Shown: positions 33,822-60,500 of the stretch, in pieces | Layout of the letters: each line of letters begins with the position of its first letter | Numbering within the stretch: position 1 is the first letter of the stretch | DNA from: Opitutaceae bacterium | Lineage (GTDB): Bacteria > Verrucomicrobiota > Verrucomicrobiia > Opitutales > Opitutaceae | Direction: 5' to 3' | DNA length: 64,000 nt | NCBI GenBank assembly: GCA_035415285.1 | Contig: DAOOFR010000001.1 | Location: 14,732-78,731 of the forward strand | Translations under genes and position numbers: made by a program | The notes under the pieces: model-generated | Database searches by the model: none | What the model was told of the DNA's origin: nothing | Seen by the model: only the letters and a program-made list of their open reading frames with translations

Positions 33822-33832
33822 TGACGCCGAGC

Positions 33833-37469: not shown

Positions 37470-37544
37470 CGGCGCGGCCCGCTCCAGTTCGTTCCCGCTG
37501 TTTCGCAACGCGGCCCCCGTCCGCTTCAACCGTTTTTCCCCACC

Positions 37545-42440: not shown

Positions 42441-42623
42441 GGCGGTGTTTGTGCCGCGTTCCGGGGCGGAAGGCCATGCGCGAAATCCGGCGGGGCGGAG
42501 TATCCCGTGGCGGCGGCCCCGGCCGGGCGTTGCGAGCACCCGGGCCGGGGCCCCGCAGCGAAGTGATCGCCGCGGTTGACCCCCGGCGCCGAACGCCATA
42601 TCCAGTGGAGGGGCACAAACACC

Positions 42624-43331
42624 ATGCGTGATCCACGAATCAATCCCTTCACGAAGGAGCTGCTCGCCCAGGAGACCTTGGACGAGTGGCAACGGCTCAT
42701 CGACACCGCCGCCGAGATCTTCGAGGTGCCGGCCGGGCTGATCACGCGCGTCGATCGCGACCAGATCGAGATCCTCCTCACGAGCAAGACCGAGGGGAAT
42801 CCGTACCCCGCGGGCTATGTCTCCCAGTATCCGGACTCCGGTTGGTACTGCGAGCGCACGCTGCGCAGCCGCGGCCTCAACCAGATCCCGGATGCGGTCG
42901 CGGATCCCGAATGGAAGGATAACGGCGCGGTCACCGGGCTGCACATGGTCTCCTATGTCGGCATGCCCATCCGGCGGCCCGACGGCGGCGAGTTCGGCAC
43001 GGTGTGTTTCCTCGACAACAAGGCCAACCGCCACAACGAACTGCACATCAAGGTGCTCGGGATGATCCAGCGGATGATCGAGTTGTCGCTCCGGGTCATC
43101 TTCGACAAGCAGCAGCTCCTCCGGCACGAGCACCTGCTCGAGGATCTCAGCCGGATCTATCCGATCTGCAGCTACTGCAAGCGGGTCCGCGACGAGAAGG
43201 GCGACTGGGTCGGGGTCGAGGACTACATCCGCGACGTCACGGGCACGCACGCCTCGCACGGGATCTGCCCGGAGTGTTTCGCGAAGCAGGAGCACCAGTG
43301 GCCCGGGGCGGGCGCCCCGGCAACGTCCTGA
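42624..43331 (+). CDS. GAF-domain protein with a C-terminal Cys-rich motif
   Basis: GAF-like core (FEVPAGLITRVD...SYVGMPIRRPDGGEFGTVCFLD) and a tail YPICSYCKRVRDEKGDWVGVEDYI...HASHGICPECF. Confidence 0.7.
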   Translation: MRDPRINPFTKELLAQETLDEWQRLIDTAAEIFEVPAGLITRVDRDQIEILLTSKTEGNPYPAGYVSQYPDSGWYCERTLRSRGLNQIPDAVADPEWKDNGAVTGLHMVSYVGMPIRRPDGGEFGTVCFLDNKANRHNELHIKVLGMIQRMIELSLRVIFDKQQLLRHEHLLEDLSRIYPICSYCKRVRDEKGDWVGVEDYIRDVTGTHASHGICPECFAKQEHQWPGAGAPATS

Positions 43332-43362
43332 AACATTCGGGACCTTGCCTGCGCCGGCCCGC

Positions 43363-45021: not shown

Positions 45022-45242
45022 GGAGCCGGCGGGATGGTTGAGGGGCTGGCCGAGGGCGCGCAAGGCGGGAGTCCTGGGCCGCCCTCGGATTTCGAGAAAG
45101 GGGCCGGCCTGCCCGGGGCCGCCGAACTACGGGTGCGGCGCCAGCCGGCCTGGCGGGCGGACGATGCCCATGCGACGCCCACTCCCGCTACAGCCCGGGA
45201 GTGGCGCCGGCACCTGAACGCACAATCGGGGCGCGCGGGCGG

Positions 45243-46265
45243 TCACCGGATCCAGCCGAGTTTGAGCGCGGCGAGGGTGCCCGAGCCGACGAGCACCCAG
45301 AGGATCACGCCCTGCACGAACGGCCGCGCGCCCACCGCGCGCACCGAGGCGCGGTCGAGCCCGGCGCCGATGAGGAAGAGGGTGAGGGTGAGCGCCGCGC
45401 GGGCGGCGCGGACGATCCACGGCGCGGCCGGACCGAGCGCGGGCACGAAGGTGAACAGTGCCGAGAGCGCCACGAAACCGGCGATGAACAACGGCGGTTT
45501 CACGCCGCGGCGGGCGGTGGTGCCGGTGCCGTCGTTGCGCCGCGCGAACCACCAGCCGGCGGCGAGCGCGACGGGCACGACCCAGAGGGCTCGGGCGAGC
45601 TTCACGGTCGTGGCGGTGGCGAGCGCCTCGGCGCCGTGGGTCAGCGCCGCGCCGGTGACGGAGCTGGTATCGTGGATCGCGAGCGCGCACCAGAGCCCGA
45701 AGGCGTGCGGGTCGAGTCCGGCCAGCGTGCCCAGCGGCGGGAAGATCAGGAGTGCCACACCGTTGAGCAGAAACACGGTGGCGAGCGAGGCGGAGGTCTC
45801 GGCGGCGGTGGCGCCGATGGCCGGCGCGACGGCCGCGATGGCGCTGCCGCCGCAGATGCTTGTGCCGGCCGAGATCAGCGCCGCCAACCGGGGCGCAAGG
45901 TGCAGCCAGCGGGCGAGCAGCGCGCCGAGGACGAAGGTCGCGAGCAGTCCGGCGCAGGTGTAGCCGATCCCCTGCAGGCCGACGCGGCCGACGATCGCCA
46001 AGTTCACTCCGGCGCCGAGCCCGACGACGGCCAGTTGCAGCAGCGGCTTCGCGAGCTTGGCCGTGAGCTTGGCGAACGGGTTGCCCAGCGAGATGGCGAT
46101 GGCGGTGCCGGCGAGCAGCGCGGCCCAGGGAGGCGTCCACGGCAGCAGCGAAGCCGCCGCGCCGAGCGGCAGCAGCCAGCGGGCGAGGCGCTGGGCGGGA
46201 GTGGGGGCGACACTGCGGCCCTGCGGTGGGTGCGCGGCGGTGGTGGGTGTGGGTGGTGTTTTCAA
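45243..46265 (-). CDS. YeiH/UPF0324 family membrane protein (putative sulfate-exporter family); start uncertain
   Basis: SAGTSICGGSAIAA motif, about 10 TM segments and the classic divergent pairing with a LysR regulator. The track start is a TTG followed by a low-complexity Pro/Thr stretch. Confidence 0.8.
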   Translation of the reverse strand: MKTPPTPTTAAHPPQGRSVAPTPAQRLARWLLPLGAAASLLPWTPPWAALLAGTAIAISLGNPFAKLTAKLAKPLLQLAVVGLGAGVNLAIVGRVGLQGIGYTCAGLLATFVLGALLARWLHLAPRLAALISAGTSICGGSAIAAVAPAIGATAAETSASLATVFLLNGVALLIFPPLGTLAGLDPHAFGLWCALAIHDTSSVTGAALTHGAEALATATTVKLARALWVVPVALAAGWWFARRNDGTGTTARRGVKPPLFIAGFVALSALFTFVPALGPAAPWIVRAARAALTLTLFLIGAGLDRASVRAVGARPFVQGVILWVLVGSGTLAALKLGWIR

Positions 46266-46314
46266 GAGCCAGGTCCCGTGGTCGGGTGCCGTCGATCATG
46301 CCGGAAACCGGCCT

Positions 46315-46329
46315 ATGCCACAAAGGCAT
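46315..46329. promoter_or_regulatory. LysR-type T-N11-A box ATGCCACAAAGGCAT
   Basis: The dyad ATGCC-N5-GGCAT lies in the 98-nt divergent intergenic region between the YeiH-like and LysR genes. Confidence 0.55.
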
Positions 46330-46363
46330 TGTTTCTATGGGAAGCAGGCCGGATGGTTATGGC

Positions 46364-47254
46364 ATGAACCGGAACCATCTCGCCCTCTTCCATGCGGTGG
46401 CGCAGGCCGGCGGCATCAGCGCCGGCGCGGCGGCGGTGCGCGTGAGCCAGCCGGCCGTCTCCAAACAGATCGCGGAGCTGGAGAGCGCGCTGGGCGTGCA
46501 GCTGCTGGAGCGCCTGCCGCGCGGCTGCCGGCTCACCGAGGCGGGCGAGATCCTCGCCGACTACGCGCGGCGCTGGCGGGCGCTCGAGGCCGACGCGGAG
46601 CAGGCGATCGAGGAGTACCGCGGACTCAAACGCGGCCGGCTCAACCTCGGCGCCAGCCTCACGATCGCCGGCTACCTGTTGCCGCGCGTGCTGGCGGAGT
46701 TCCACCGGCGGTATCCGGAGATCGAGCTCCGGGTGCAGACGGCGAACACGCGGCAGGTCCAGGCGGGCCTGCTCGACGGCACGCTCGAGCTCGGCCTGAC
46801 GGAGGGCGTGCACGCGGCGCCCGAGCTGGAGTCGGAGGTGTTTTTCGAGGACGAGCTGGTGGCGATCGCCCCGGCCAAGCATCCGTTTCTGAAACGCGAC
46901 GCCGTGACCGCGCGCGAATTCTGCCGGGAGCCGCTGATCCTGCGCGAGCCCGGTTCGGGCACGCGGGCGGCGATCGAGCAGGCGCTTGCACGCAAGAAGC
47001 TGAAGGTCGAGCCGCTGCTCTCCCTCGCCAGTCCGGAGGCGGTCAAGGGCGCGGTGTTGAGCGGCATGGGGCTGGCGATCGTCTCGCGGCTCATCGTCGA
47101 GCAGGAGCTGACGAGCGGCGCGCTCGGCATCGTGGAGTTGAAGGATCTCGCGATCCGCCGGCCGTTGCGGCGCCAGCGACTGCGCGGCCGCAGCGAGAGC
47201 CCCGCCGCGGCAAAGTTCCGCGAATTGCTGGGCGCGATGGCGAAGCCGGCGTGA
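46364..47254 (+). CDS. LysR family transcriptional regulator
   Basis: N-terminal HTH LALFHAVAQAGGISAGAAAVRVSQPAVSKQIAELE and a LysR substrate-binding domain. Start at ATG 46364. Confidence 0.9.
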   Translation: MNRNHLALFHAVAQAGGISAGAAAVRVSQPAVSKQIAELESALGVQLLERLPRGCRLTEAGEILADYARRWRALEADAEQAIEEYRGLKRGRLNLGASLTIAGYLLPRVLAEFHRRYPEIELRVQTANTRQVQAGLLDGTLELGLTEGVHAAPELESEVFFEDELVAIAPAKHPFLKRDAVTAREFCREPLILREPGSGTRAAIEQALARKKLKVEPLLSLASPEAVKGAVLSGMGLAIVSRLIVEQELTSGALGIVELKDLAIRRPLRRQRLRGRSESPAAAKFRELLGAMAKPA

Positions 47255-47339
47255 TCGGGCGGCCGGGGCTGCGGCTGTGGTTTGTCTCTTGCCCGGCAGG
47301 GGCCGCGGCACTGTCGTTTGGACACAGTAAGCCCGCGCC

Positions 47340-48722
47340 ATGCCCCGCTCCAAACGCCTTCTCATTCTTCTACCGGGCGGGCAGCCCCATCTTCTCAAAC
47401 TCGGGCCGATCCGCACTTCGTTTCGCGAGGCGCCGCTCACCGGGACGTTGCTGGCGGCGCTGGTCCCGCCGGAGCTCGGGCTCGAGGTCACGTATGTGGA
47501 TGGCAGCGTCTCCCCGATCCCGCTGGATGACGACTTTGACTTGGTCTCGATCAGTCTGATCACGGGCATGGCACTGCGCGGTTACGAATTGGCGGAGCAT
47601 TTCCGGCGGCGGGGCGCGACCGTCGTGTTGGGCGGAGTCCATGTATCGCTCCTGCCCGAGGAGGCGCGACCGCACGCCCACTCGATCGTGATCGGTTTTG
47701 CCGAGCGTACCTGGCCGCAGTTGCTGCGCGATTGGTGCGCGGGGGCGTTGAAGCCGGAGTACCGCCACATCGGGCCGGCGGCGGTCGTTGGCCTGCCACA
47801 CCCGCGCCGCGATCTCCAGAAGCGGTTCGGCTATATGATGCCACGCACCGTGAACGCCACCCGCGGCTGCCGGCAGGCCTGTGACTTCTGCGTGGCGCCG
47901 GCTGTCCCCATGGGCTGGAACACGCGGCCGGTCGGCGAGGTGGTGGCGGAGGTGCGCGCGCTGCCCGGGCGCACGTTCGCTTTCCACGATCTCAACCTCA
48001 CGGACGACATCGGCTACGCCAAGGAGCTCTTCGCCGCGCTCCGCCCGCTGCGCAAACAATGGGGCGGTCTCGTCTCCACGAAGATCGCCCGCGACGCCGA
48101 GTTGCTCGATCTGATGGCTGCCTCCGGCTGCAGCTACCTGCTGATCGGTTTCGAGTCGGTCAGCCCGATGGCGCTGCGCGGCATGCGGAAACGGTTCAAC
48201 GCGCCCGACCACTATCGCGACGTGGTCGAGGCGCTGCACGACCGGCACATCGTGGTCCAGGGCTGCTTCATCTTCGGTCTCGACGACGACACGCCCGATG
48301 TGTTCGCCCAGACCGTGGCGGCGATCGACGAACTGCGGATCGATATCCCGCGCTTCGCCCTCTACACGCCGTTTCCCGGCACCGAATCCTACCGCCGTCT
48401 CAAGGCCGAGGGGCGCATCCTCCACGAGGACTGGCGCTACTACGACACCCAGCACGTCGTCATCCGGCCGCGACACATGTCGCCGGCCGAGCTCGACCGC
48501 GGGTTCATCTGGGCGTGGCGGGAGAGCTTCAAGCTCGGGATCGCCGCGAAACGCGTACGCCTCCATCGCAACACCCGCATCTCCGCCGTGGGCAATCTCG
48601 CCTACCGCCTCTACGGCCACCGCCTGAAGCGCGACGAGGACCGCTTTCCTTGCACGAACGAGGTCGTTGCAGCTTGGAACCGGCATGAACCGGCGCAGTC
48701 GCTCGCGGAGGTCTCCGCATGA
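47340..48722 (+). CDS. B12-binding-domain radical SAM protein
   Basis: N-terminal Rossmann-like cobalamin-binding region (DLVSISLITGMALRGYELAEHFRRRGATVVLGGVH), the cluster motif GCRQACDFC and a C-terminal DUF4070-like LYTPFPGTESYRRL. Confidence 0.85.
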   Translation: MPRSKRLLILLPGGQPHLLKLGPIRTSFREAPLTGTLLAALVPPELGLEVTYVDGSVSPIPLDDDFDLVSISLITGMALRGYELAEHFRRRGATVVLGGVHVSLLPEEARPHAHSIVIGFAERTWPQLLRDWCAGALKPEYRHIGPAAVVGLPHPRRDLQKRFGYMMPRTVNATRGCRQACDFCVAPAVPMGWNTRPVGEVVAEVRALPGRTFAFHDLNLTDDIGYAKELFAALRPLRKQWGGLVSTKIARDAELLDLMAASGCSYLLIGFESVSPMALRGMRKRFNAPDHYRDVVEALHDRHIVVQGCFIFGLDDDTPDVFAQTVAAIDELRIDIPRFALYTPFPGTESYRRLKAEGRILHEDWRYYDTQHVVIRPRHMSPAELDRGFIWAWRESFKLGIAAKRVRLHRNTRISAVGNLAYRLYGHRLKRDEDRFPCTNEVVAAWNRHEPAQSLAEVSA

Positions 48723-49138
48723 CCACGCTCTGCCGGATCTACCTAGCGGTGCTGTCGGGCTACCATGTGCTGACCGGCATCGTGTCGTTCGCTTTTCCGC
48801 AGTTCGCGTTCCGGTTCTACGCGGCGCTCTACGCCTGCAACCCCGCCGAACGCCGCCAGCTCGTGCTGGTGATGAAACCGTGGGGCGCGCTCGCGCTCTG
48901 CGCGGGTGTGGCCGGTCTGTTCGCAGCGGCGGACCCGGTGCGTTACTGGGGCGTGGTCGCCGCGCTCTGGTTGCTGCTGGTGCTGCGGATCGTTTTTCGT
49001 CTGGTCTGGCGCGCCGAACTGGCCGAGGTCGGCCGGATCCCCGCGCATCGCAATCTGCTCAGCACGGGCATCATCGCCGCAGGGGCGGTGATCCTCGGCG
49101 CATGGCTGGTCCGACACTTGTCTCTCAGTCTCGTCTGA
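48719..49138 (+). CDS. Small 4-TM membrane protein, unknown function
   Basis: ATGA overlap with the upstream gene. Four hydrophobic segments. Paralogous to 49166-49618 by eye (LSGYHVLTGIVSFAFP versus ICLYHIACGLLVVAAP). Confidence 0.6.
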   Translation: MTTLCRIYLAVLSGYHVLTGIVSFAFPQFAFRFYAALYACNPAERRQLVLVMKPWGALALCAGVAGLFAAADPVRYWGVVAALWLLLVLRIVFRLVWRAELAEVGRIPAHRNLLSTGIIAAGAVILGAWLVRHLSLSLV

Positions 49139-49165
49139 ATCCAACGATCAACGAAGGAACACACC

Positions 49166-49618
49166 ATGGAAATTCGTCGCCATCTCGCCCTGCGGGCGCT
49201 GCTCTGGGTCATCTGTCTTTACCATATCGCCTGCGGACTGCTGGTGGTCGCAGCGCCCGAGCAGATTCCGCTCGTGGCGGAGAAACTGGCGGGGCTCAAG
49301 GTGTCGGCGTCGCCGGAGTTCCTTTACCTCGCGAAACCGTTCGCCGTTTATGCGATGGTCTTCGGGGTCATGATGGGGGTGGCGGCCTGGAATCCGGTGA
49401 AGAATCGGGCGTTGATCAGCATCGGCGTGGTGCTGTTCGCGCTGCGGATCCTCCAGCGGTTGCTCAGTCTCGATGAGGTGGAGCGGACCTTCGGCGTCAC
49501 GCCGGCGCGTAGCTGGCAGACGATCGGACTCGTGGCCGTGTTCGGCTTCGCCCTCGCCTGGCTGCGCTTCCGCCTCTACCGCGAGATGCGCGCCGACGCG
49601 ACGGATCACTCCGTCTGA
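49166..49618 (+). CDS. Small 4-TM membrane protein, unknown function (paralog)
   Basis: 150 aa with four hydrophobic segments. Same strand, 27 nt after the previous gene. Confidence 0.6.
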   Translation: MEIRRHLALRALLWVICLYHIACGLLVVAAPEQIPLVAEKLAGLKVSASPEFLYLAKPFAVYAMVFGVMMGVAAWNPVKNRALISIGVVLFALRILQRLLSLDEVERTFGVTPARSWQTIGLVAVFGFALAWLRFRLYREMRADATDHSV

Positions 49619-49642
49619 ACCGCGAGCCAGCCCCCCCGCCCC

Positions 49643-50755
49643 ATGTTTGCCCTGCCCTGGACGCGCGACTCCGTGCCGCACGCGGTGATCGAACTCACCC
49701 GCGACTGCAACCTCGCTTGTCGCGCATGCTACCGGCAGAAGACGGCCGGATTTCGCCCGCTCGCCGCGATCCTCGAGGATGTCGCGGTCATCGAGCGTCA
49801 CCAACGCGTCCACACCGTGTCGCTCGCAGGCGGCGAACCAACCATGCACCCCGAACTGGTCGCGATCGTGCGCGCCGTGAAGCGCCGCGGCCATCGGGTT
49901 TCCCTCGTGACCAACGGGCTCGTGCTCACCGCCGAGCTGCTGGCCGAGCTCAAACGGGCCCGCCTCGACATCGTGATGATCCACGTCGACGAGGGGCAGA
50001 TCCGCCCGGATCTCTCCGATCCTGCGGACATCGGCGCGGTGAATCGCCTGCGCGAAACCATCGCCGCGCGGGTCCACGCGCATGGGATCGCCGTCGGCCT
50101 CTGCACGACCCTCTACCCGGATTCGCTCGCCCACCTGCCGGACCTCGTCGGCCTGTTTCTCCGGCATCCGCACATCAACTTCCTGTTTGCCACGCACGCC
50201 GTCGGCATCCGGGCGCTGGTGACGCAGGTGCAGTCCGGCGACGCGGCCGACGAGCCGACCGCCGGTACGACCAACGGGATGGTCATGCGCGAGATGCGGC
50301 GCCGTTTCGGTCTCGAGCCGTACGCTTTCATCCCGGCGACGAAGCCGACGAGCGACGGCGAGCTGCCCTGCATCACCTACACGATCCCGGTCGCCCACCG
50401 GCGCGAAGAAGACTTCCTCCGCATGCACTCCGGCCGGCTCGACCGCCAACTCGTGAAGTTTAGTCGGTTGCTCGCCGGGCGTTATCTGTACTTCACCCCG
50501 GACCGCTTGTTCGCGCACCTTGTGCAGATTGGCGTCAATGCGCTTGGCTCCGGCCGCTTCGCCACCGCCGTCCGTTTCCTCTGGCGAGCCCGCGGCGGTC
50601 CGCTGCGACTGAAGCGCCTTGTCTTCGAAAACGCGCCGCGCATCACGTCGGAGGGCACGGTCAACTGCTGCGACTTCTGCCCGAACTCCACCGTGCGCGA
50701 CGGCCGGGTTGTGCCCGTCTGTCTCGCCGATCACGCGCAAACGCTTCACTTGTGA
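49643..50755 (+). CDS. Radical SAM protein
   Basis: IELTRDCNLACRACY cluster motif, the SLAGGEPTMHPEL SAM motif and a C-terminal Cys cluster NCCDFCPNSTVRDGRVVPVC. Confidence 0.8.
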   Translation: MFALPWTRDSVPHAVIELTRDCNLACRACYRQKTAGFRPLAAILEDVAVIERHQRVHTVSLAGGEPTMHPELVAIVRAVKRRGHRVSLVTNGLVLTAELLAELKRARLDIVMIHVDEGQIRPDLSDPADIGAVNRLRETIAARVHAHGIAVGLCTTLYPDSLAHLPDLVGLFLRHPHINFLFATHAVGIRALVTQVQSGDAADEPTAGTTNGMVMREMRRRFGLEPYAFIPATKPTSDGELPCITYTIPVAHRREEDFLRMHSGRLDRQLVKFSRLLAGRYLYFTPDRLFAHLVQIGVNALGSGRFATAVRFLWRARGGPLRLKRLVFENAPRITSEGTVNCCDFCPNSTVRDGRVVPVCLADHAQTLHL

Positions 50756-52053
50756 TGGAGCTCGGGACAACTTCGGTCCACTGCCCGCGCTGCCGGTCGG
50801 TGCATGCGGCGCGGTTGGTGCGCGAGGGCGACCGCATCTTGGGTGTGAGCGACTGCCCGGCGGGAACGCCGCCGGTCGAGCTCACCGACGATGCGGATCT
50901 GTTCCTCCAGTTGCGCGCGCTTGATTGCGAAACAGAAGAACGCTGCCGCACGCCGGACGATCCGTTGCCGCGGGCGCAGTTGTACATCACGGAGGCGTGC
51001 AACTGGCGGTGCCCGGTCTGTTATGCCGCTTCGGGGCCGGACGAGGGTGGCGCACACCTGCCCGTCGCCGAGTGCCTCCGCCGGGCGCAAGACGCGAAAA
51101 GTCGCGGGCTGCGACGTCTGATTCTGCTCGGCGGCGAACCGACGGTGCACCCTGAACTCGAGGCGATCGTCTCCGGCCTGCACGGCCTCGGCATCACGGT
51201 GTCGTTGGGGACCAACGGCCAGCGGTTGGCCGACGAGCCGGCGCTGGCGCAGCGGCTGAAGGCGGCCGGGCTCGCGCACGTGAACCTCCAGTTCGACACC
51301 TTGGTTACCGAAACGCTGCGCCGCCTGCGCGGGCATGCCGAGGTGGAGCTGAAGCAGCGCGCGGTCCGGCATCTGGCCGCGGCGCGGCTGCCGTATTCGC
51401 TGACCGTTACGGTGACCCGGCTGAACCTGCCCGAGCTCGGCGCCATCGTGCGCTGGGCGGCAAGCCAACCGGTGCTGCCGTCGCTCGTGCTGTTTCAGGC
51501 AATGGTGCAGGCCGGGCGGTATCCGGAGGGGCTGGCCGGTGTGTCGCGCGAGGCGATGATCGGGGAGGTCTTGCGCGCCGGTGTGGTCACAGGCGCGACG
51601 GCCCGGCATCTCCACGTGGTGCCGCGGATTCCGGCAGGTGGGCTCGCGATCCACCCCGATTGCGGGGCGTTGCTCTTCGCGCTTCGCCGCGGCGAGGAAC
51701 TGGTGCCGGCCGAGAGCGCGCTGGACATCGCCCGTTTGGTTCAGGCCTTGACCGGCTACCGCGACAGCTGGCGCACGCGGCTGTACGCGGCAGGAGCGTT
51801 GCTGCGCAGCCCGCACCCGGGCCATGGGTACGAGTCGTTCGCGGCCTTGCTCGGACTCCTGCCCGGGCGCGTCAACCGCCGGTTGATGCTACTCGGCTTC
51901 AGCTCGTTTTGTTCGCCCGATTTCCTCGATGAGCGGCGGCTCGCCCGCTGTGCCGATCATGTACTGCTTGCCACCGGTACCGCGCCGGTGTGCCGGCACT
52001 TCGGGCTTCGCACCCCCAACCCCGAACCCGTTCCGCCACGCACCTCACCCTGA
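50755..52053 (+). CDS. Radical SAM protein with an N-terminal zinc-ribbon/rubredoxin-like Cys motif
   Basis: N-terminus HCPRCRS...SDCPAG, the cluster motif ITEACNWRCPVC and LLGGEPTVHPEL. ATG 50755 overlaps the upstream stop (TGATG); the track start is GTG 50752. Confidence 0.8.
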   Translation: MELGTTSVHCPRCRSVHAARLVREGDRILGVSDCPAGTPPVELTDDADLFLQLRALDCETEERCRTPDDPLPRAQLYITEACNWRCPVCYAASGPDEGGAHLPVAECLRRAQDAKSRGLRRLILLGGEPTVHPELEAIVSGLHGLGITVSLGTNGQRLADEPALAQRLKAAGLAHVNLQFDTLVTETLRRLRGHAEVELKQRAVRHLAAARLPYSLTVTVTRLNLPELGAIVRWAASQPVLPSLVLFQAMVQAGRYPEGLAGVSREAMIGEVLRAGVVTGATARHLHVVPRIPAGGLAIHPDCGALLFALRRGEELVPAESALDIARLVQALTGYRDSWRTRLYAAGALLRSPHPGHGYESFAALLGLLPGRVNRRLMLLGFSSFCSPDFLDERRLARCADHVLLATGTAPVCRHFGLRTPNPEPVPPRTSP

Positions 52054-53369
52054 TCCAGCCCAGTGTCGGTCGGAAGGCCGACGGTTCCCCGTATCCGACT
52101 TCCTGGCGCATGGAGCCGCTGGGCATCGCCGCGCTCGCCGGTCTCACCCCGCGGGAGGTGCGCCGCACGTTCTTCGACGACCGGCTCGAGGCGATCGACT
52201 ACGAGGCGTCGACCGATCTGGTGTGCCTCACCGTCGAGACTTACACCGCGCGCCGAGCCTACCAGATCGCCGCGCGCTACCGCTCGCGCGGCGTGCCCGT
52301 GGTGCTCGGCGGTTTCCATCCGACGCTCCTGCCGAAGGAAGCGGCTCGTCACGCCGATGCCGTGGTCGTCGGCGAGGCGGAGCCGGTGTGGTCCGAAGTG
52401 CTGGCTGATGCGGCCCAAGGGAAACTTCGCGCGCGCTACGAGGCGGCCCGGCCATCGCTGGACGGGCTGCGTCCGGATCGTTCGATCTTCGGTCAACGAC
52501 GTTACGGGATGGTGTCGCTCGTCGAGACCTCGCGCGGCTGCCGGTTTCGTTGCGAGTTCTGTTCAATCAGCGCGATGTTCCGGCACAGCTGCCGCGAGCG
52601 CCCGGTGGCCGAGGTCGTCGAGGAGGTCCGTCGGCTGCGCAAGCCGGTATTCTTCGTGGACGACAACGTCGGCTCCGATCCGGTGCGCCTGCGGCAGTTG
52701 TGCGAGGCTTTGATTCCGCTGCGCCGCTCGTGGATCGGGCAGGTGAGCCTGCACATCGCCGCCGACCGCGAGCTGCTCGCGCTCATGCGGCGCTCCGGTT
52801 GCGAAGGCGTGCTCATCGGCTTCGAATCGCTCGACGCGCCCACGCTCACCGCGATGGGCAAGACGGTGAACCTCGGCGCCCGCGACTACCCGCACGCCAT
52901 TCGCGCCTTCCGCGACCACGGGCTGGCGATCTACGCGACATTTGTTTTCGGCTACGACCACGACACGCCCGAGACGTTTCGCCGAGTGTACGAGTTCGCC
53001 CTCGAACAACGTTTCTTCTTCACGGCCTTCAACCACCTCGTGCCGTTTCCCGGCACGCCGCTGTACGAGCGGATGGCGGCGGAGGGGCGACTGCTTTCCC
53101 CGCACTGGTGGCTCGAACCCGAGGGGCGTTTCGGCGAAGTGGTTTTCCAACCGGCGCAACTGTCGCCGCGGCAGCTGGCCGACCTCTGCGAAGAACACCG
53201 TCGGCGCTTCTACGCGTTGGCGTCACTCGCGCGCCGCGCGACCGACTTCCGTGCCAACTGCCGCACGCCGTACAAGGCGCTCGTGTTCCTCGCCCAGAAT
53301 CTCCTGCACCAACGCGAGGTTGTGCGCCGGCAGGGTCTGCCCTTCGGCCTCACGGAGGGGGCGTCGTGA
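51990..53369 (+). CDS. B12-binding-domain radical SAM protein (start uncertain)
   Basis: DLVCLTVETYTARRAYQIAARYRSRGVPVVLGGFH, the cluster motif GCRFRCEFC and NHLVPFPGTPLYERM. Paralog of 47340-48722. The track start would overlap the previous gene by 64 nt. Confidence 0.85.
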   Translation: MPALRASHPQPRTRSATHLTLIQPSVGRKADGSPYPTSWRMEPLGIAALAGLTPREVRRTFFDDRLEAIDYEASTDLVCLTVETYTARRAYQIAARYRSRGVPVVLGGFHPTLLPKEAARHADAVVVGEAEPVWSEVLADAAQGKLRARYEAARPSLDGLRPDRSIFGQRRYGMVSLVETSRGCRFRCEFCSISAMFRHSCRERPVAEVVEEVRRLRKPVFFVDDNVGSDPVRLRQLCEALIPLRRSWIGQVSLHIAADRELLALMRRSGCEGVLIGFESLDAPTLTAMGKTVNLGARDYPHAIRAFRDHGLAIYATFVFGYDHDTPETFRRVYEFALEQRFFFTAFNHLVPFPGTPLYERMAAEGRLLSPHWWLEPEGRFGEVVFQPAQLSPRQLADLCEEHRRRFYALASLARRATDFRANCRTPYKALVFLAQNLLHQREVVRRQGLPFGLTEGAS

Positions 53370-54469
53370 GGTTCACGCTCGCCACCGCGGAGCACGACGC
53401 GGCGTTGCGCCGCCTCCAGCGCGCCCAGCCGATGCCGGGACGGATCCGCCTGGCGTTCGCTTCGGAACCGAGCTGGACCGCCGCCCACGCCGTGCTCGGC
53501 GACGTGAGTCAAACCCTCGTCGCAACCGATGCCACCGGGGCGGTCGCCGGCTGCGGTGTTCGCAGCGTGCGGCGACTCTACGTGAACGGCAGCCCGACCG
53601 AAATGGGCTACCTCTCCGGTCTGCGCTCGCTCCCGCGGGTGCGCCGTGCTCTCGGGTTGGCGCAGGGCTTCCGCTTCCTACGGCAGCTGCACGAGGCCGA
53701 CCGCCGAACGCCCGCGTACCTGACAACGATCATCGAGGGCAACGAGACCGCCGAGGTTGCGCTCACCAGTGCTCGCGCCCGACTGCCGGCATACGTCGAT
53801 CAGGGGCGGTTCATCACCAGTGCGGTGTTCCTCTCCCGCCGACGCAAGCCGGCGGCGCCCGCCGGTGGCGTCGAGATTCGCACGGGCGCCGAGATCGCGT
53901 GGCCGCTGCTCCTCGATTTTCTGCGATCGGAAGGGCCTCGGCGCCAGTTCTTCCCTGTAGTCGAAGCCGACGACTTCGACACGTCGCTCTGGCGGGGCCT
54001 CCGGCCGGCGGACTTCCGCGTCGCGCTCCGCGGCGGCAAGATCGTCGGTGCCGCCGCGGCTTGGGATCAGTCGGCGTATCGCCAAACCGTGGTGACAGGC
54101 TACGATCCGCTGCTGCGCCTGCTGCGGCCGCTCGCCAACCTCGGGCTCGCAGCGCTGGGCCGACCTGCGCTGCCGCCTCCGGGCGACGAGCTCCGATTCA
54201 TCCACCTCGCGCTGCCCTGCGTGCGCGGTGACGACGTTGGCGTCTTCGCCGCGTTGCTCGAGCGTGTCCACGCCGACTGGATTGACGGCCCCTACACCTG
54301 CTTCGTCGTCGGCTTACATGAGCGCGATCCACTGCGGGCGGCATTGGCGAGCTTCCCCACGTTCGCCTACGCCAGCCGGCTCTACCTAGTTAGCTGGGAG
54401 GACGGGGCCGCCTTTGTCGCCGGGCTCGATCCGCACCGGATTCCGCATCTCGAAACCGCCCTGCTGTAG
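53366..54469 (+). CDS. Hypothetical protein, possibly an acyl-CoA N-acyltransferase (GNAT/FemAB-like) fold
   Basis: GTG 53366 overlaps the upstream stop (GTGA). The 367-aa translation is continuous in the 52550-54469 track frame. The fold call rests on general appearance only. Confidence 0.5.
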   Translation: MRFTLATAEHDAALRRLQRAQPMPGRIRLAFASEPSWTAAHAVLGDVSQTLVATDATGAVAGCGVRSVRRLYVNGSPTEMGYLSGLRSLPRVRRALGLAQGFRFLRQLHEADRRTPAYLTTIIEGNETAEVALTSARARLPAYVDQGRFITSAVFLSRRRKPAAPAGGVEIRTGAEIAWPLLLDFLRSEGPRRQFFPVVEADDFDTSLWRGLRPADFRVALRGGKIVGAAAAWDQSAYRQTVVTGYDPLLRLLRPLANLGLAALGRPALPPPGDELRFIHLALPCVRGDDVGVFAALLERVHADWIDGPYTCFVVGLHERDPLRAALASFPTFAYASRLYLVSWEDGAAFVAGLDPHRIPHLETALL

Positions 54470-54470
54470 C

Positions 54471-55196
54471 ATGAGCCTCACCGCCCAGATCGTCGCGCGC
54501 TCGTTGCTGCCGGCCCAGACCGCCGAGGAGATGCTGGCGCTGCACCAGCGGCACTTCGACGGTGTTGAGCGCATGCGCTTCTTCACCGATCTCGAGGAAA
54601 AGGATTGGGTGATCCTCCTGCTCGCCGCCGACGGCCGGTTGGCGGGATTCTCCACGCAGAAGCTGCTGTCCCCGGTCGAAGAGCTTGGCGGCGCCCGGTT
54701 CCTGTTCAGCGGCGACACGATTGTCGAACGGGCGCATGCGAACACCCCGCTGCTGCCCGGTTGCTTCGGTCACCTCATGCTGCGATTGATGGAGCAGTAC
54801 GGCGAGGAGTCGCTCTATTGGTTCCTGATCTCGAAAGGATTCCGCACCTACCGGTTCCTGCCGGTGTTCTTCGAACGCTTCTGGCCGTCATCGGATCACG
54901 CCACGCCCCAGGCCGCGCAAAGGTTGATCGATGCCGTGGCCCGGCGGAAATTCGGCCCTGCGTACGACGCGACCAGCGGCTTGGTGCGCATCGCGGAGAC
55001 GGACCGGCTGGCACCCTCGCTGGCGCAGATTCCGCCCGGCCGGCTCGATGACCGGCACGTGGCGTTCTTCCTCGCGCGCAACCCCGGCTACGCCCGCGGC
55101 GACGAACTGGCCTGCCTCGCGCCGATCCGCCGCGACAACCTCAACAGCTATGGGCGACGCGTGATCCGCAGCACGCATCCGATCTGGGTATGCTGA
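54471..55196 (+). CDS. Hypothetical protein, possibly acyltransferase-like
   Basis: ATG 54471 lies 1 nt after the upstream stop. 241 aa, ...FLFSGDTIVERAHANTPLLPGCFGHLM...YWFLISKGFRTYRFLPVFF... No confident family. Confidence 0.5.
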   Translation: MSLTAQIVARSLLPAQTAEEMLALHQRHFDGVERMRFFTDLEEKDWVILLLAADGRLAGFSTQKLLSPVEELGGARFLFSGDTIVERAHANTPLLPGCFGHLMLRLMEQYGEESLYWFLISKGFRTYRFLPVFFERFWPSSDHATPQAAQRLIDAVARRKFGPAYDATSGLVRIAETDRLAPSLAQIPPGRLDDRHVAFFLARNPGYARGDELACLAPIRRDNLNSYGRRVIRSTHPIWVC

Positions 55197-56884
55197 GAGA
55201 CGCCGTGACCTTCGCCTGCCAGCTGCTCTGGCTGCTCGCCTCGCTCCCGGGCTGGCTGCGTTTCCAGTGGGCGCTGCGGCATCCGCGTCGCGCCCAAGAA
55301 CAGGTGCTGCGACGACTGATAAAGGCCAACCGCGGCACCGCGTTTGGACAAGCGCACGACTTTGCTGCAATCCGGACGCAGGAGGAGTTCTCCAGCCGAG
55401 TGCCGTTTGCGGAGTATGAGGCCTTCGCGGACTCGATCCGGCTCGCGCGCGAGGGCCACGCCTTCCCCCTGGCCGCCGAGCGTCCCGAACTGCTCGAACC
55501 CACCAGCGGTTCCTCGGGAGCTCCGAAACTGATTCCGGTCACGCCGCAACTTCGCCGCGAGTTCGCCGCAGCGGTGCAACCGTGGATCGCATGGCTCCTC
55601 CTCGCTCATCCCCGCCTGCTGCTTGGCCGCCACTATTGGGCGGTGAGCCCGAATACCCGGCCGCTTGCGGGGACGTCGCAGACCACGGACCGCGTGCCGA
55701 TCGGCTTCTCGGACGATGCGGACTACCTCGGTGTGTTCGGACGATTCGTGGCCCGCGGTATCCTCGCCAACCCCGCCGACCTCAGGAACGTCACCGATCC
55801 AGAGTCGTTCACCAAGCTCACGCTGCTCTTTCTGCTCGCGGAGCGAAACCTCCGCCTTGTCTCGGTCTGGCACCCGTCGTTCCTCACCGTGCTGCTGGCC
55901 GCTCTGCCGCGACATCTGCCGGAGGTTCTCGCTGCGCTGCGATGCGGGGAGCTTCCCGGAGGCGCGGCAGCCGACGCCACAGCCCGTGAGGCCATCGGGC
56001 AACGGTTCCGTGGTGACCGACGACGTGCCGACGAACTCGAGGCACTCGATCTCGCCCGAAACCCCGAACGCCTCGCGCAGGTATGGCCGAAATTGGAGAT
56101 CATCAGCTGTTGGGCCGGGCCGCGGTCCGAGCCGTGGCTGGGCGAGTTGCGTCGGCTCTTCCCCCGCGCGGCCATTCAACCGAAAGGCCTGCTGGCGACG
56201 GAGGGCTGCGTGTCCATCCCGACGGGCTGCGGACGAAAACGACCGTGCGCAGTGACCTCGCATTATTTCGAATTCGTCCGGTTTGAAGACGGAGTCGCTG
56301 TGCCGGTGTGGAAGCTGGTGCTCGGGCAGGAGTACTCGGTGGTGCTGACGACCGGCGGCGGGCTCTGGCGCTACCGCCTACATGATCGCGTGAAGGTGGT
56401 GGACTTCTGCCATGCCACGCCGTGTCTCGAGTTTCTCGGCAAGGACAATGCGGTCAGCGACATGGTCGGTGAGAAGCTCGACGAGAGGCATGTTGCGGAA
56501 GCGTTCGCGGAAGTGCTGGCTGGAGGCGACAATACTCCGATTTTCGCGATGTTGGTACCGGATCCCGGGTGGGCTGGGCGATCTGCTGCCGGCTACCTTC
56601 TTCTGTTCGAGGCCGGGCAAGTTGCGGTGGCGCAGGAAGCTTTGCCTCGCTGGTGCGAACGGGTTGAACGTTGCCTGCGGCGGAACTACCACTACGACCA
56701 CGCCTGCAATCGCGGGCAACTGGCGCCTCTACGTGGTGTGCTCGTTCGCGAGGGAGCCCGAAGCTATCGCGAGGCGGCGGTGCGGCGGGGCGCCCGAATC
56801 GGCACGATCAAGATACCGGCGCTGGACTGGCGTTCTGTTGATTCAGGCACCGTGTGGTGGCAGACGGTTTCCGACGGCGAGTGA
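55190..56884 (+). CDS. GH3 family (acyl-acid amido synthetase-like) adenylate-forming enzyme
   Basis: FGQAHDFAAIRTQEEFSSRVPFAEYEAF and the ATP motif EPTSGSSGAPKLIPVT match the GH3 pattern. The start overlaps the upstream gene by 7 nt. Confidence 0.8.
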   Translation: MLRDAVTFACQLLWLLASLPGWLRFQWALRHPRRAQEQVLRRLIKANRGTAFGQAHDFAAIRTQEEFSSRVPFAEYEAFADSIRLAREGHAFPLAAERPELLEPTSGSSGAPKLIPVTPQLRREFAAAVQPWIAWLLLAHPRLLLGRHYWAVSPNTRPLAGTSQTTDRVPIGFSDDADYLGVFGRFVARGILANPADLRNVTDPESFTKLTLLFLLAERNLRLVSVWHPSFLTVLLAALPRHLPEVLAALRCGELPGGAAADATAREAIGQRFRGDRRRADELEALDLARNPERLAQVWPKLEIISCWAGPRSEPWLGELRRLFPRAAIQPKGLLATEGCVSIPTGCGRKRPCAVTSHYFEFVRFEDGVAVPVWKLVLGQEYSVVLTTGGGLWRYRLHDRVKVVDFCHATPCLEFLGKDNAVSDMVGEKLDERHVAEAFAEVLAGGDNTPIFAMLVPDPGWAGRSAAGYLLLFEAGQVAVAQEALPRWCERVERCLRRNYHYDHACNRGQLAPLRGVLVREGARSYREAAVRRGARIGTIKIPALDWRSVDSGTVWWQTVSDGE

Positions 56885-56913: not shown

Positions 56914-57333
56914 TCACCTTTGTCCGGTGGGCACGGAGACCGGAACGGGAGCGATCTTCTGCCCGGCGGCGAGCCAGTCGCGCAGGCCGCCGGCGTTGGC
57001 GGTGCGGTAGCCCTCGGCGGCGAGGAGGCGGGCGGCCTGGCCGGAACGGTTGCCGGTGCGGCAGTAGAGGATGAGCTCGCGGTTCTTGTTCGCGGCGAGG
57101 AACGGCTTCCAGTCGCGGCGTTCGCCGCGCAGATCGCTCAACGCGAGCGGGGTCGCGCCGGCGACGATTCCGGTCTGTGCCCACTCGCCGGATTCGCGCA
57201 CGTCGATCAGCACGGCGGTGCCGGCGGCGACGCGGGCCGCGGCCTCGGCGGGCGTGAGGCGGGCGACGTCGGCGCGGCAGGCGGTGAGGGCGAAGAGAAG
57301 GATGGCGAACGAGAGGGGGAGAGCGGAGCGCAT
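56914..57333 (-). CDS. Secreted rhodanese-domain sulfurtransferase
   Basis: Signal peptide MRSALPLSFAILLFALTACRA, and a rhodanese fold with the active-site loop LILYCRTGNRSG. Start at ATG 57333. Confidence 0.85.
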   Translation of the reverse strand: MRSALPLSFAILLFALTACRADVARLTPAEAAARVAAGTAVLIDVRESGEWAQTGIVAGATPLALSDLRGERRDWKPFLAANKNRELILYCRTGNRSGQAARLLAAEGYRTANAGGLRDWLAAGQKIAPVPVSVPTGQR

Positions 57334-57550
57334 TGGTTTCCGGTTTTGGGCGCGGCACGGTACGCGATCCCGCGGCCACACCAAACGCGAAACGCACCGG
57401 CCGGTCGCGCCAAAGTCGCTCGGCCGAGCGGCCGCTTGCCCTGCGCGGTGAAGCACTCAACATCCTGCTGCCCCGGCGACAGCCGCGACGACCGCTCCCC
57501 GCGGTCGATCTCCGCCCTGTCCGCACCCCAACGATCGAGACCACCGCCCC

Positions 57551-60500
57551 ATGCGCCGCTCCATCCTCTGGTTTCTCCTGCTTTGCCTCGGCCTCGCCGC
57601 CCGCGCGACCGATCTCGGCAAATTCACGATCCCCGACAATCAGCTGCCCTGGACCCGCGAGGCCGCGCTCGACGCCCGGTTCGGCGGGCAGGTGATCCGG
57701 GTGAACGACCCGCGCGCCGGCGAGTTGCTCGTGATCCTGCCCGCGGCGGGCATCGAGGCCGCGCCCGACGCCGTGATGGCGACGATCCGCGCGGAGTTGC
57801 AACGCGTCGATCCGGCCGCGACCCCCGCCGACGCGCTCCAGCTCGGTCTGGTCGACACCACGTGGTTCGGCGTCGGCCGGCCCGAGGAGGGCTTCGTGCT
57901 CTACCGCGGCGCCGCCGCCAAGGACGGGCTCGTCTATCCGATCGCGCTGCGGGTGCCCGTGCCCGGCACGGTGTCCGTGGAGCACCGGAAGTTTCTGCGC
58001 AACCTCAGAATCCAGCGTGTGGTGACGCGAACCACGGCCGCGGCGCCCATGGGCCGGGGCAATCTTCTGCTCAACAAGAAGGACCTGCCCGGGGCGCTCG
58101 CCGCCTTCGACGAGGCGGTTGCGAAGGATCCGCGGAGTCCGGAAGCCTACTACTTCCGTGGCATGTGCCACAAACGGATGAAGAACGTCGCCGCCGCCCG
58201 GAAGGACCTCGACCGCGCGCTCGCGCTGAAGCGCACCGCCGACTTCCTGGTCGAGCGGGCCGAGGTGGAGATGGCCGCCGGCGATCACGCGGCGGCGCTG
58301 CAATGGCTGGAGCAGGCCCGCGCCGCCGAGCCGGAGAACGAGGCGGTGCACCGCAACCTCGGCATGGTCCACCACAACCTCGGCCAGACCGAGCGCGCGA
58401 TCGCGGCGTTTACCCGGGCGCTGGAGCTCCACCCCGCCAACCGCGGCGGGCGCGCCTCGCTGGTCATGCTTCACTCCCTCGCCAAGAACCCGACGGCCGC
58501 CGCCGCGCAGTGGCACGCCTTCCGCCAGTTCCATCCGGGGGACGCCTACGCCGACGAACTCCGGCAGTTCGTCCTCAAGGAGAATCCCGGTGCGACCTTC
58601 GCCGCCGCGCCCGCCCCGGCCACCGGCCTCCGCGCCGCCACCCGGAGCGCGCCGGCGCCCGCGGTCGCCGCGAACCAGCCGAAACCCCGTGCGGCTGTCA
58701 CGAAGGACTCCGCACGTCCGCCGGCTCGCGCCGCCGCCACAGTGCTGCCGGACGACGATCCGGCGGCGCTGGCCGCGTTCAAGCAGCTGCCGCCGTTGCC
58801 CCCGCTCTCCACGATGCTCGCCCAGGCCCGCGCCACCCCGGTGGCGCCGCGCCTCGACCCGCGCGCGTTCAACTCGTTGCAGTACCTCGGCGCGGTCGCC
58901 GCGGTGCGCCAGGCCATGGCGGAACTCGCCGGACCGCTGAGCGACGAGGCGCGCAAGACCTTCGACGCCCGCTGGGCCGCGATCGAGGACTACCCGGCCG
59001 ACGCCTGTATCGAATACCTCAACGCCGCTTCGCCCCTGCTCGGCGAGATCCTCGCGTTGCGCGCCGCGCTCGTGAAGGCCATGCAGGGCTACGACAACCT
59101 GCTCGACCAGGCGCGCACCGCCCGGCTCTGCGGCAACCACGCCGCCGCCCACGAGGCGATGCGGCGCGCCGGGCAGCACGCCGCGCTGCTCAAGGGGCTC
59201 CAACGCAGTTGCGACCAGGCCGTGCAGGCGCTCGCCGCGCTCGGCGAACTGCCCGATGCCGCGCTGATCAAGGCGCGCGTCGCCGAGCAGTTCGCCGCCG
59301 CCAAGAGCCTGTTGCGCAATCTCGACCGGCCGCTGGCGCTCTCCGGCGAATACGAACCCTCCCGCCACCAGACGGTGCAGGACCCCTTCGACGTCGGCTT
59401 CCGCCAGCCGCCGAACCCCGCGGCGCTGAAGGTCGAATACGACACGGAGACGGGCCGGAGCGTCTACTACCAGCCGTTGAAGAGCATCGGCGGCAACCGC
59501 GTCCTCTTCTACGTCTGCGAGACCTTCCCGGCGGGGAACAGGAACTCCTGGACACAGGTGTTCGAGGAACGGGGCGACGGGGTCTTCGTCTGCTACGGCG
59601 GCGGCAGCGATCTCTCCCGCACCGAACTCCGCGTCACCGAGGACGGCTTCACCGAGACCGAGTACACGCTCGGCCCGCCGGGCATCAACCCGGCGAACAA
59701 CGACTTCTCCGAACGGGCGGCGGCCGCCGTCGCGAAGGGCCAGCGCCCGTCGGGCAAACTGGTCTATTCCGTGCGCAGTCGCACCCATTTTGCTACCGGC
59801 GTGCAGTACCAACGACCGCCCACCGACGACGAGTTCGACTGGCGCGGCTGGGAGTCCGACTTCCGCAAACAGGAGAAGGCGATCCTGGCCGAGTTCGAGG
59901 GCGAGCAGCGCGCGTTCGAGACGCTCGCGCCGTCGCTCCCGTTTCCGCGGCCGATCCCCGCCGAACACATCTTCTGGGTCCTGGAGCGCACCGCCGTCGT
60001 CCCGGCGAACGATCCCTGGGTGCCCCAATGGCAGCTCTCGGAGGTGAACCCCGCGGCCGACGCGGTCTTCCGCCGCCTGATCAAGCGCAACGACGGACTC
60101 GAGCCCTTCCCGCAGCTCGTCGCGGCCCGCACCACCGAGGTGGCGCCCAACGGCATCCGCTGCCGCGATGTGCAGAAGGTCGTCGATGCGCGTGGCGATC
60201 CCGACGTGGTCTACGACACGCTGAGCGTCGCCTACGAGCTCGCGTGGACTCCGCCGCCGCCCGTGCTCGCGCAGGTCGGCGGGCGTTTCGAGGTCGAGAT
60301 CACCGCCGCCCGCGAGGTGACGGCACCGCGCCAGAAGGCGCTGCTGCCGGCCGCATTCGCCGACTTGCTGGCCACCGCAACCCCATCCGCCGGTGACGAG
60401 CAACGGGAGCACCTGCTCACGCCGCACCTGCGCTCCGCCGCGGCCAAGGTCAAGGAGACGACCCCGCTCGCCTGCACCGCCGACCAGCTCAACGGCGAGG

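Follow-up and report, generated by a model that had tools for sequence, protein, structure and literature searches.

A nine-gene operon on one strand

The window analyzed here is a stretch of 64,000 nucleotides (nt) with a G+C content of ~70%, deposited under a metagenome-assembled genome (MAG) named 'Opitutaceae bacterium', and the gene cluster under study lies at positions 47340-56884 of it. Nine open reading frames (ORFs), all on the plus strand, were read from the sequence of this interval. They encode four radical S-adenosylmethionine (SAM) enzymes, two small proteins with four transmembrane (TM) segments (4-TM proteins), two proteins with predicted GNAT folds, and one GH3-family ligase. 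They are listed below with protein lengths in amino acids (aa); core and accessory refer to conservation at other loci.

g1, 47340..48722, + strand, B12-domain radical SAM enzyme, 460 aa, core
g2, 48719..49138, + strand, small 4-TM protein, 139 aa, accessory
g3, 49166..49618, + strand, small 4-TM protein, 150 aa, weakly DUF4345-like, accessory
g4, 49643..50755, + strand, radical SAM enzyme, 370 aa, Cys-rich C-terminus, accessory
g5, 50755..52053, + strand, radical SAM enzyme, 432 aa, N-terminal rubredoxin-like knuckle, accessory
g6, 51990..53369, + strand, B12-domain radical SAM enzyme, 459 aa from GTG 51990, core
g7, 53366..54469, + strand, predicted tandem-repeat GNAT-fold acyltransferase, 367 aa, core
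g8, 54471..55196, + strand, predicted GNAT-fold domain plus C-terminal helical domain, 241 aa, core
g9, 55190..56884, + strand, putative GH3-family ATP-dependent acyl-acid amido synthetase, 564 aa, core

The unit starts at 47340 and ends at 56884, and its genes overlap or are separated by short gaps. An ATGA overlap joins g1 and g2 at 48719, spacings of 27 nt and 24 nt separate g2 from g3 and g3 from g4, and g4 and g5 meet in a TGATG with a 1-nt overlap at 50755. Further downstream, g6 and g7 share a GTGA overlap at 53366, g7 and g8 are 1 nt apart, and g8 overlaps g9 by 7 nt at 55190. An earlier note on this DNA had described a single-strand operon with such junctions, and the nine genes are indeed a real, tightly packed operon.

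The start of g6 deserves comment. Public gene callers place it at ATG 52110, whereas the earlier note had placed it at GTG 51990. The homologs of g6 conserve an N-terminal strand of the form M-x-[IL]-T-[FL]-I-x-P-x-V-G-R-K, and the window encodes this strand (HLTLIQPSVGRK) upstream of ATG 52110. GTG 51990 is therefore the better start, and it gives g6 a 64-nt overlap with g5.

Four metagenome assemblies hold copies identical to the window. The nine proteins are deposited as HQF37543-HQF37551, and identical proteins carry only the public names 'radical SAM protein', 'hypothetical protein' or 'GH3 auxin-responsive promoter family protein'.

A conserved five-gene core

We scanned one genome per GTDB species, using an alignment of 11 g7 sequences as the anchor, and obtained 176 hits. 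Of these, 80 loci were fetched and compared with all window proteins by tblastn, and the counts below refer to the 55 loci with at least 3 kb of sequence upstream and at least 3.5 kb downstream. The genes g7, g8 and g9 occurred together in 50 of the 55 loci, and g8 adjoined both g7 and g9 in 50. At least two B12-domain radical SAM genes were found in 45 loci. A g1 ortholog lay directly upstream of a g6 ortholog in 30 loci, and the exact contiguous order g1-g6-g7-g8-g9 was likewise present in 30. The genes between g1 and g6 behaved differently: a g4-type radical SAM gene occurred in 16 loci, g5 in five, g3 in five, and g2 in one, the close relative L005, with all other copies of g2 confined to near-identical loci. 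The conserved module thus consists of the five genes g1, g6, g7, g8 and g9, and g2-g5 are a lineage-specific insert between g1 and g6. Co-conservation, which the earlier note had suggested checking for all nine genes, held for this five-gene core, which is kept in dozens of genomes, but not for g2-g5, which do not form one unit with it.

The nearest genome locus was that of the Verrucomicrobia MAG L005, with ~89% identity at g7, and only in this closest relative were g2-g5 all found together. Related g4/g5/g3 modules occurred in a minority of the other loci, and g3 homologs adjoined the core or the g4/g5 module in L018, L021, L027, L030, L035 and L071.

Judged by record titles, the core spans a dozen or more phylum-level lineages. 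These include Verrucomicrobiota, Kiritimatiellia, Lentisphaerae, Planctomycetota, Acidobacteriota, Chloroflexota, Gemmatimonadota, Desulfobacterota (including Geobacter and Desulfuromonas), Gamma- and Betaproteobacteria, Elusimicrobia, Melainabacteria, Omnitrophota, Symbiobacteriaceae and Rhodothermales. Protein identities of the core loci to the window were 30-60%. Since the core recurs in dozens of unrelated genomes, the association of its genes goes far beyond chance. The order was rearranged to g8-g9-g7 in L046, L052, L063 and L065, and L086 showed a divergent core layout. No g7 gene carried on a plasmid was found.

Two gene fusions also connect members of the core. In P0290 (817 aa), a B12-domain radical SAM enzyme is fused to a g7-type tandem GNAT protein, and in P0424 (874 aa) the g7-type protein is fused to a GH3 ligase. 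As separate genes, the partners usually share a few bases read in different frames, so a frameshift or an assembly error could have produced these apparent fusions, and we count them as supporting evidence only.

The core was also seen on short contigs binned as Woesearchaeota (L027), Nanoarchaeota (L069), Nealsonbacteria (L030) and 'Mycobacterium leprae' (L049), the last an implausible label. These contigs, labelled as DPANN archaea, candidate phyla radiation bacteria or M. leprae, are either mis-binned or, if real, evidence that the core is carried by ultra-small symbionts unable to make their own lipids.

To describe the genes around the core, all ORFs of the 80 loci were clustered and the representatives were scanned for families. 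Three kinds of add-on module recurred. Add-on (a), the type present in the window, consists of g4-type and g5-type radical SAM genes with a g3-like 4-TM protein. Add-on (b), which occurs in Lentisphaerae and Victivallales, combines a SnoaL-like protein, a TM-anchored hexapeptide transferase and an amidohydrolase with a radical SAM gene of the g4 type and another two B12-radical SAM genes. Add-on (c) contains an FA_desaturase (sometimes fused to PAP2), an AurF-like diiron protein, a Rieske protein, SnoaL, a TM-hexapeptide transferase and PAP2, with a large RnfD-like/FG-GAP/ASPIC membrane protein and FA_hydroxylase as optional extras; the FA_hydroxylase gene was linked in L085. Add-on (c) is typical of loci in which the B12-radical SAM pair is absent, for example in Roseateles and other Proteobacteria and in one MAG each of Acidobacteriota and Methylomirabilota. 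O2-dependent enzymes may thus partly stand in for the radical SAM steps. However, we do not regard this as a rule, since add-on (c) occurs together with the pair in L053, L068 and L080.

The large membrane protein of add-on (c) has ~920 aa and combines an N-terminal RnfD/NqrB-like polytopic membrane domain with FG-GAP repeats and an ASPIC/UnbV domain. It directly adjoins g7 or g8 in L046, L052, L063, L065, L084 and L085, and is tightly linked to the radical-SAM-free cluster variants, along with an unannotated TM protein of ~200-250 aa.

Predicted proteins and flanking genes

Scans of the nine proteins against Pfam and NCBIfam gave superfamily-level matches only, and no equivalog cutoff was reached. 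A PADLOC scan of the nine proteins gave no defence-system match beyond generic radical SAM similarity: g4 and g5 matched the radical SAM core of viperin-type models only, g1 had one marginal match (PDC-M51A, 18.3 bits), and nothing was found for g2, g3 and g6-g9. Within these limits, the families named in the earlier note, which had read g1 and g6 as paralogous cobalamin-domain radical SAM enzymes, g4 and g5 as further radical SAM enzymes, g2 and g3 as paralogous 4-TM proteins, g7 and g8 as acyltransferase-like and g9 as a GH3 ligase, were upheld for every gene.

All four radical SAM proteins (g1, g4, g5 and g6) carry a CxxxCxxC motif, and their Pfam Radical_SAM scores range from 49.7 to 81.5 bits. 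For g1, with the motif at C177, the scores were 49.7 bits for Radical_SAM and 27.0 bits for B12-binding, the latter under the cutoff of 32.1, whereas g6 scored 53.1 and 36.6 bits and exceeded that cutoff. The two proteins share 39% identity (E 5e-67), and the likeness extends across the B12-binding domain. By sequence, g1 and g6 are class B radical SAM enzymes, with the motif and an N-terminal B12-binding Rossmann domain. Among NCBIfam models none was reached by g1 at its cutoff, the best being HpnJ (81.7 bits vs 577.6), and g1 and g6 matched the models for HpnJ, BchE, PhpK and a 'ladderane' lipid B12-radical SAM enzyme about equally and weakly (54-82 bits). The best PDB sequence match of g6 was AprD4 (6fd2, E 2e-13), which NCBIfam describes as a radical SAM diol-dehydratase and not a methylase. 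Because this non-methylase is the best solved match of g6, methylation by g1 and g6 is likely but not assured.

For g7 and g8, the label acyltransferase-like had almost no support in sequence: neither protein matched a Pfam or NCBIfam model over threshold or a curated acyltransferase family, with g7 reaching 17.2 bits for Pfam Acetyltransf_9 (cutoff 25) and g8 giving no Pfam match. The support came from structure prediction and Foldseek. The AlphaFold2 model of g7 (predicted local distance difference test score, pLDDT, 92.7; predicted template modelling score, pTM, 0.90) matched the Eis-like acetyltransferase 2i00 with E 4e-12 and probability 1.0. Other matches included the tandem GNAT protein MAB_4324 (7q3a), a tandem glucosamine N-acetyltransferase and N-myristoyltransferases, with TM-scores up to 0.59 and identities to g7 of 8-16%. 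As modelled, g7 has a tandem-repeat GNAT fold. The model of g8 (pLDDT 95.3) gave weaker matches, to NatD, AAC(2') and YhbS over the N-terminal ~130 residues (E ~1e-4, TM-score 0.37-0.46), and predicts one GNAT-like domain followed by a helical C-terminal half. We also considered g8 as a half-copy of g7, and the profile-profile probability for this was only 8.8%; beyond the shared fold, the g7 and g8 families are not detectably related. Both families are large, with 3227 cluster representatives (50% identity) at E<=1e-10 in a g7 profile search and 3808 homologs of g8 at E<=1e-3, all unnamed.

The ligase g9 exceeded the Pfam cutoff of 23.6 bits for all three GH3 domains (GH3 144.3, GH3_M 63.6, GH3_C 34.8 bits). 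The nucleotide-binding motifs of GH3 enzymes are SSGTSxGxxK, YGSSE and GLYRYRLGD (PMC12493201). The corresponding motifs of g9 are T105-SGSSGAP-K113, K332-GLLATE-G339 and G391-LWRYRLH-D399 (TSGSSGAPK, KGLLATEG and GLWRYRLHD), and their core residues are invariant in 23 clade members. Hence g9 looks like an intact and functional member of the GH3 family. The CxxxCxxC motifs of the four radical SAM proteins and the high-confidence GNAT models likewise point to working enzymes. Its best PDB matches are plant GH3 enzymes.

In the insert, g2 and g3 each have four hydrophobic segments and share 26% identity (E 3e-6). No Pfam or NCBIfam family was matched by g2, and g3 reached 21.1 bits for Pfam DUF4345, under the cutoff of 26.5. 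The Pfam Radical_SAM scores of g4 and g5 were 72.9 and 81.5 bits. The C-terminus of g4 carries the motif CCDFCP...PVCLAD, which was seen in the window and in the one L006 homolog that was read, and its best PDB sequence match, to the archaeal tetraether synthase GDGT-MAS (GDGT, glycerol dialkyl glycerol tetraether), was weak (E 1.4e-5). For g5 the same enzyme was the best PDB match (7tol, E 2.3e-14), with only the radical SAM core aligned; against NCBIfam, g5 scored 116 bits for TrsS (cutoff 490). The rubredoxin motif of GDGT-MAS is C9X2C12X20C33X2H36 (PMC9433317). The rubredoxin-like CPRC...C motif that had been noted in g5 is present as C10-X2-C13-X20-C34, in register with it.

Upstream of g1 lies a LysR-family gene (46226-47254, +), back to back with a gene for a YeiH-type 'Cons_hypoth698' membrane protein (45243-46265, -), and the two resemble a divergent regulator-target pair. 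The LysR gene was considered as a cluster member and rejected: it pairs with the divergent YeiH-family gene, and its place beside the cluster is conserved in near-identical genomes alone. A role as regulator of the cluster is therefore improbable. A terminator-like hairpin at 47259-47278, between the LysR gene and g1, is weak evidence for a boundary there. No promoter-like site was found, and no riboswitch or other RNA was matched by Rfam anywhere in the window. Downstream, a rhodanese gene (56914-57456) is convergent on the cluster.

Genes for phosphate acquisition are located 2-6 kb upstream of the cluster (41001-45063). They comprise an alkaline phosphatase with a twin-arginine translocation (TAT) signal, in a long ORF (41001-43646, -) whose true start is probably much later, near the TAT motif, and a Na/Pi cotransporter fused to PhoU (43363-45063, -). 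Phosphate limitation often induces phosphorus-free aminolipids; this neighbourhood is not conserved at other cluster loci. Further upstream, outside the conserved module, one more radical SAM gene stands alone at 36435-37469 (+), with a gene for a rubrerythrin-VIT1 fusion directly behind it (37470-38516, +). Positions 27427-35259 encode a TonB-dependent receptor, a ZIP transporter, a SufBD-like protein, a CobW-family GTPase and an Mrp/NUBPL Fe-S carrier ATPase, and this metal and Fe-S neighbourhood could be relevant to supplying the four Fe-S enzymes of the cluster. On the other side, positions 57551-62800 encode a 1749-aa protein with TPR repeats only in the first ~300 residues, the rest being unannotated. 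In L001, a longer metagenome copy, genes for a thioredoxin and a second rhodanese follow it.

Proposed pathway and comparison with known systems

The earlier note had not recognized the gene combination as any described pathway, and no curated model, public annotation or paper that we found describes the module. Full-text literature searches returned the papers on OlsH, on GDGT-MAS and on archaeal lipid modification by radical SAM enzymes but no description of the cluster; in such searches the term 'GH3' is confounded with glycoside hydrolase family 3. The absence of a precursor peptide, polyketide synthase or nonribosomal peptide synthetase gene, or glycosyltransferase from the cluster was confirmed. 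The enzymes all come from known superfamilies, and the logic of an acylation initiated by a GH3 enzyme has a characterized relative.

We tentatively propose, as a reading somewhat short of an even chance, that the core encodes a pathway for an N-acyl amino-acid-type lipid or amphiphile whose alkyl chains are tailored by radical SAM enzymes. In this pathway, g9 would adenylate a carboxylic acid with ATP and couple it to an amine. The acid would most likely be a fatty acid, or the free carboxyl group of an N-acyl amino acid, by analogy with OlsH of Singulisphaera acidiphila, a bacterial GH3 enzyme that uses ATP to join a free fatty acid to ornithine, giving N-acyl ornithine (PMC12493201). One or two more acyl groups would be added by g7 and g8 from acyl-CoA or acyl-acyl carrier protein (ACP), giving an N-acylated amino-acid (aminolipid-type) amphiphile that would sit in the membrane. 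The B12-domain enzymes g1 and g6 would then modify unactivated sp3 carbons of its alkyl part, most likely by C-methylation, with ring formation or desaturation as precedented alternatives. At the locus in the window, g4 and g5 may add a further radical step on the tails, possibly a C-C coupling; g5 shares the radical SAM core and the rubredoxin-like knuckle with GDGT-MAS. The 4-TM proteins g2 and g3 would hold or present the membrane substrate.

Several observations speak for a lipid product. N-myristoyltransferases, which use long-chain acyl-CoA, are among the Foldseek matches of g7. Furthermore, membrane- or lipid-type proteins recur as neighbours of the core, including FA_desaturase, the PAP2-FA_desaturase fusion, PAP2, FA_hydroxylase, the TM-hexapeptide transferase and 4-TM proteins. 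The archaeal use of plain together with B12-type radical SAM enzymes on lipid tails (bioRxiv 10.1101/2025.10.20.683597) is a precedent on the same side. Other observations weigh against the proposal. The scores of g9 for the OlsH equivalog (67.7 bits vs 620) and of g5 for Tes (88.3 bits vs 450) are far under the NCBIfam cutoffs, and neither the cluster in the window nor any recurrent neighbour gene encodes an OlsI-type alpha/beta-hydrolase. Among the neighbours at the 80 loci, the core has no linked gene for an ACP, fatty-acid synthesis, glycerolipids or a flippase, and no TM segments are predicted in g1 and g4-g9. The N-terminal auxiliary cluster of GDGT-MAS is bound by C73, C77 and C80 with a conserved His (PMC9433317); this Cys triad is absent from g5, and the fourth rubredoxin ligand of g5 is Gly instead of His. 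Among curated proteins, the linked PAP2-FA_desaturase fusion comes closest to GntB, a hydroxylase of free arginine. As GntB and AprD4 exemplify, membership in these families is no proof of a lipid substrate, and no lipid or metabolite is tied to any carrier of the cluster.

The choice between a lipid and a soluble small molecule is not decided. Instead, the pathway could yield a metabolite of the amino-acid or dipeptide type, acetylated or acylated, that serves for example as a signal, osmolyte, antibiotic or cofactor, a possibility that we take seriously but consider unlikely. The GH3 enzyme would then form an amide between two small blocks, the GNAT proteins would N-acetylate, the B12-radical SAM enzymes would C-methylate side chains, and the membrane proteins would be exporters or incidental. 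Most of the GNAT proteins matched by structure (Eis, AAC(2'), glucosamine N-acetyltransferase, NatD) transfer from acetyl-CoA to small amines or peptides, and the plant GH3 enzymes closest to g9 in the PDB join small acids to amino acids. For the linked proteins of Rieske, desaturase-like and B12-domain type, the closest curated matches likewise include enzymes acting on free small molecules (GbcA on glycine betaine, GntB on arginine, and AprD4), and the lack of linked fatty-acid or ACP genes fits a soluble product as well. However, the cluster has no dedicated exporter, with an ABC ATPase in only 8 of the 80 loci, and recurring integral-membrane accessory enzymes (PAP2, FA_desaturase, FA_hydroxylase, TM-hexapeptide transferase, and g2/g3) are unusual for a soluble pathway. 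These membrane-embedded enzymes, the GDGT-MAS-like g5, which fits a soluble pathway poorly, and the precedent of OlsH, the sole characterized bacterial GH3 enzyme and a lipid enzyme (PMC12493201), favour the lipid, though none of them decides the matter.

Modification of a peptide or protein, RiPP-like (RiPP, a peptide made on ribosomes and then post-translationally modified) or otherwise post-translational, appears improbable. In such a system, side-chain methylation of the kind found in polytheonamide-type RiPPs and methyl-coenzyme M reductase (MCR) would fall to the B12-radical SAM enzymes and acylation of an N-terminus to the N-myristoyltransferase-like tandem GNAT protein, and the GH3 enzyme would attach a group at a carboxylate or an amine. 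The resemblance of g7 to N-myristoyltransferases, which acylate protein N-termini, fits this scheme, as do weak matches of g6 to ApyD (59 bits) and the MCR glutamine C-methyltransferase (54.5 bits). However, all RiPP and MCR model matches are far under their cutoffs, and the packed core leaves no room for a precursor gene. ORFs of 20-110 aa within 700 nt on either side of the core, compared over all loci, are shared by close relatives only, and genes for proteases, leader recognition (RiPP recognition elements, RRE) or transporters are not recurrent. Finally, that the nine genes are mere neighbours with unrelated functions, packed together incidentally, would agree with the lack of conservation of g2-g5 with the rest and of any curated family tying the genes together, but this is highly improbable and effectively refuted by synteny: the core co-occurs in 45-50 of the 55 loci across its lineages with overlapping stop and start codons, the association persists through rearrangements and gene fusions, and the 30-60% identities argue against one recently spread mobile element.

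A broader form of the lipid proposal, which we regard as doubtful, is that the core makes an unrecognized class of amino-acid-linked bacterial membrane lipid. B12-type and Tes-like radical SAM enzymes would methylate, cyclize, desaturate or cross-link its chains by oxygen-independent chemistry, with O2-dependent desaturases or hydroxylases, AurF-like diiron proteins and Rieske enzymes adding or replacing steps in some lineages, and the whole would be a bacterial counterpart of the archaeal lipid-tailoring toolkit. If so, the products could be a pool of unassigned biomarker lipids in anoxic sediments, digesters and soils. More generally, a lipid product would mean a fourth, radical-SAM-tailored route to bacterial aminolipids, would extend to many bacteria a radical tail chemistry so far mainly archaeal, and would provide geochemistry with a genetic marker of orphan lipids, whereas a soluble product would point to a widespread, unexplored natural-product family. 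In either case, the g7 and g8 families have thousands of members with no Pfam or NCBIfam model, synteny-locked to GH3 and B12-type radical SAM genes and found mostly in uncultured anaerobes. Among the carriers, two are in culture: Desulfuromonas sp. CSMB_57 (NZ_JAFCIY020000039, locus L078), which has the five-gene core, and Roseateles sp. NT4 (NZ_JBPZGZ010000001, locus L052), which has a radical-SAM-free variant.

Compared with characterized systems, each part of the cluster has a relative but differs from it. Eis, MAB_4324 and N-myristoyltransferases have the same two-GNAT-domain fold as that predicted for g7, but at 8-16% identity they share no sequence family with it. The N-/O-acyltransferase routes of OlsB/OlsA and OlsF, which lead to ornithine lipids and kindred aminolipids, likewise build an acyloxyacyl amino lipid from an amino acid by two-step acylation (PMC12493201, PMC12971839), whereas g7 and g8 match no curated acyltransferase family. 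Later tailoring on these routes is by hydroxylases of the fatty-acid hydroxylase superfamily (PMC12493201, PMC12971839), the superfamily of the gene linked in L085.

Archaea modify their lipid tails with both plain and B12-type radical SAM enzymes, the B12-type ones including the GDGT ring synthase, methylases of GDGTs and glycerol monoalkyl glycerol tetraethers (GMGTs), and the tetraether desaturase Ted (bioRxiv 10.1101/2025.10.20.683597). The cluster, compared by enzyme type, resembles this archaeal set in having the same enzyme mix, which in archaea acts on saturated chains under anoxic conditions. The archaeal enzymes differ in acting on isoprenoid ether lipids and in having no linked GH3 or GNAT genes. 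GDGT-MAS (Tes, 7tol), which performs radical C-C coupling on inert lipid tails (PMC9433317), is the best solved relative of g5 and has the same C-X2-C-X20-C spacing. However, its C-terminal domain is not matched by g5, and g5 is an accessory gene, present in only five of the 55 loci.

In OlsH/OlsI, too, an operon has a GH3 enzyme as its committed ligase, with a further acyl chain attached by another enzyme (PMC12493201), and g9 retains the three GH3 nucleotide-binding motifs. The partners of the ligase differ, being two GNAT-fold proteins here and the alpha/beta-hydrolase OlsI there, and the ligase here is accompanied by between two and five linked B12-domain radical SAM genes, which are not reported for OlsH operons. 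The cluster is thus not a member of the OlsH/OlsI system but is related to it in logic.

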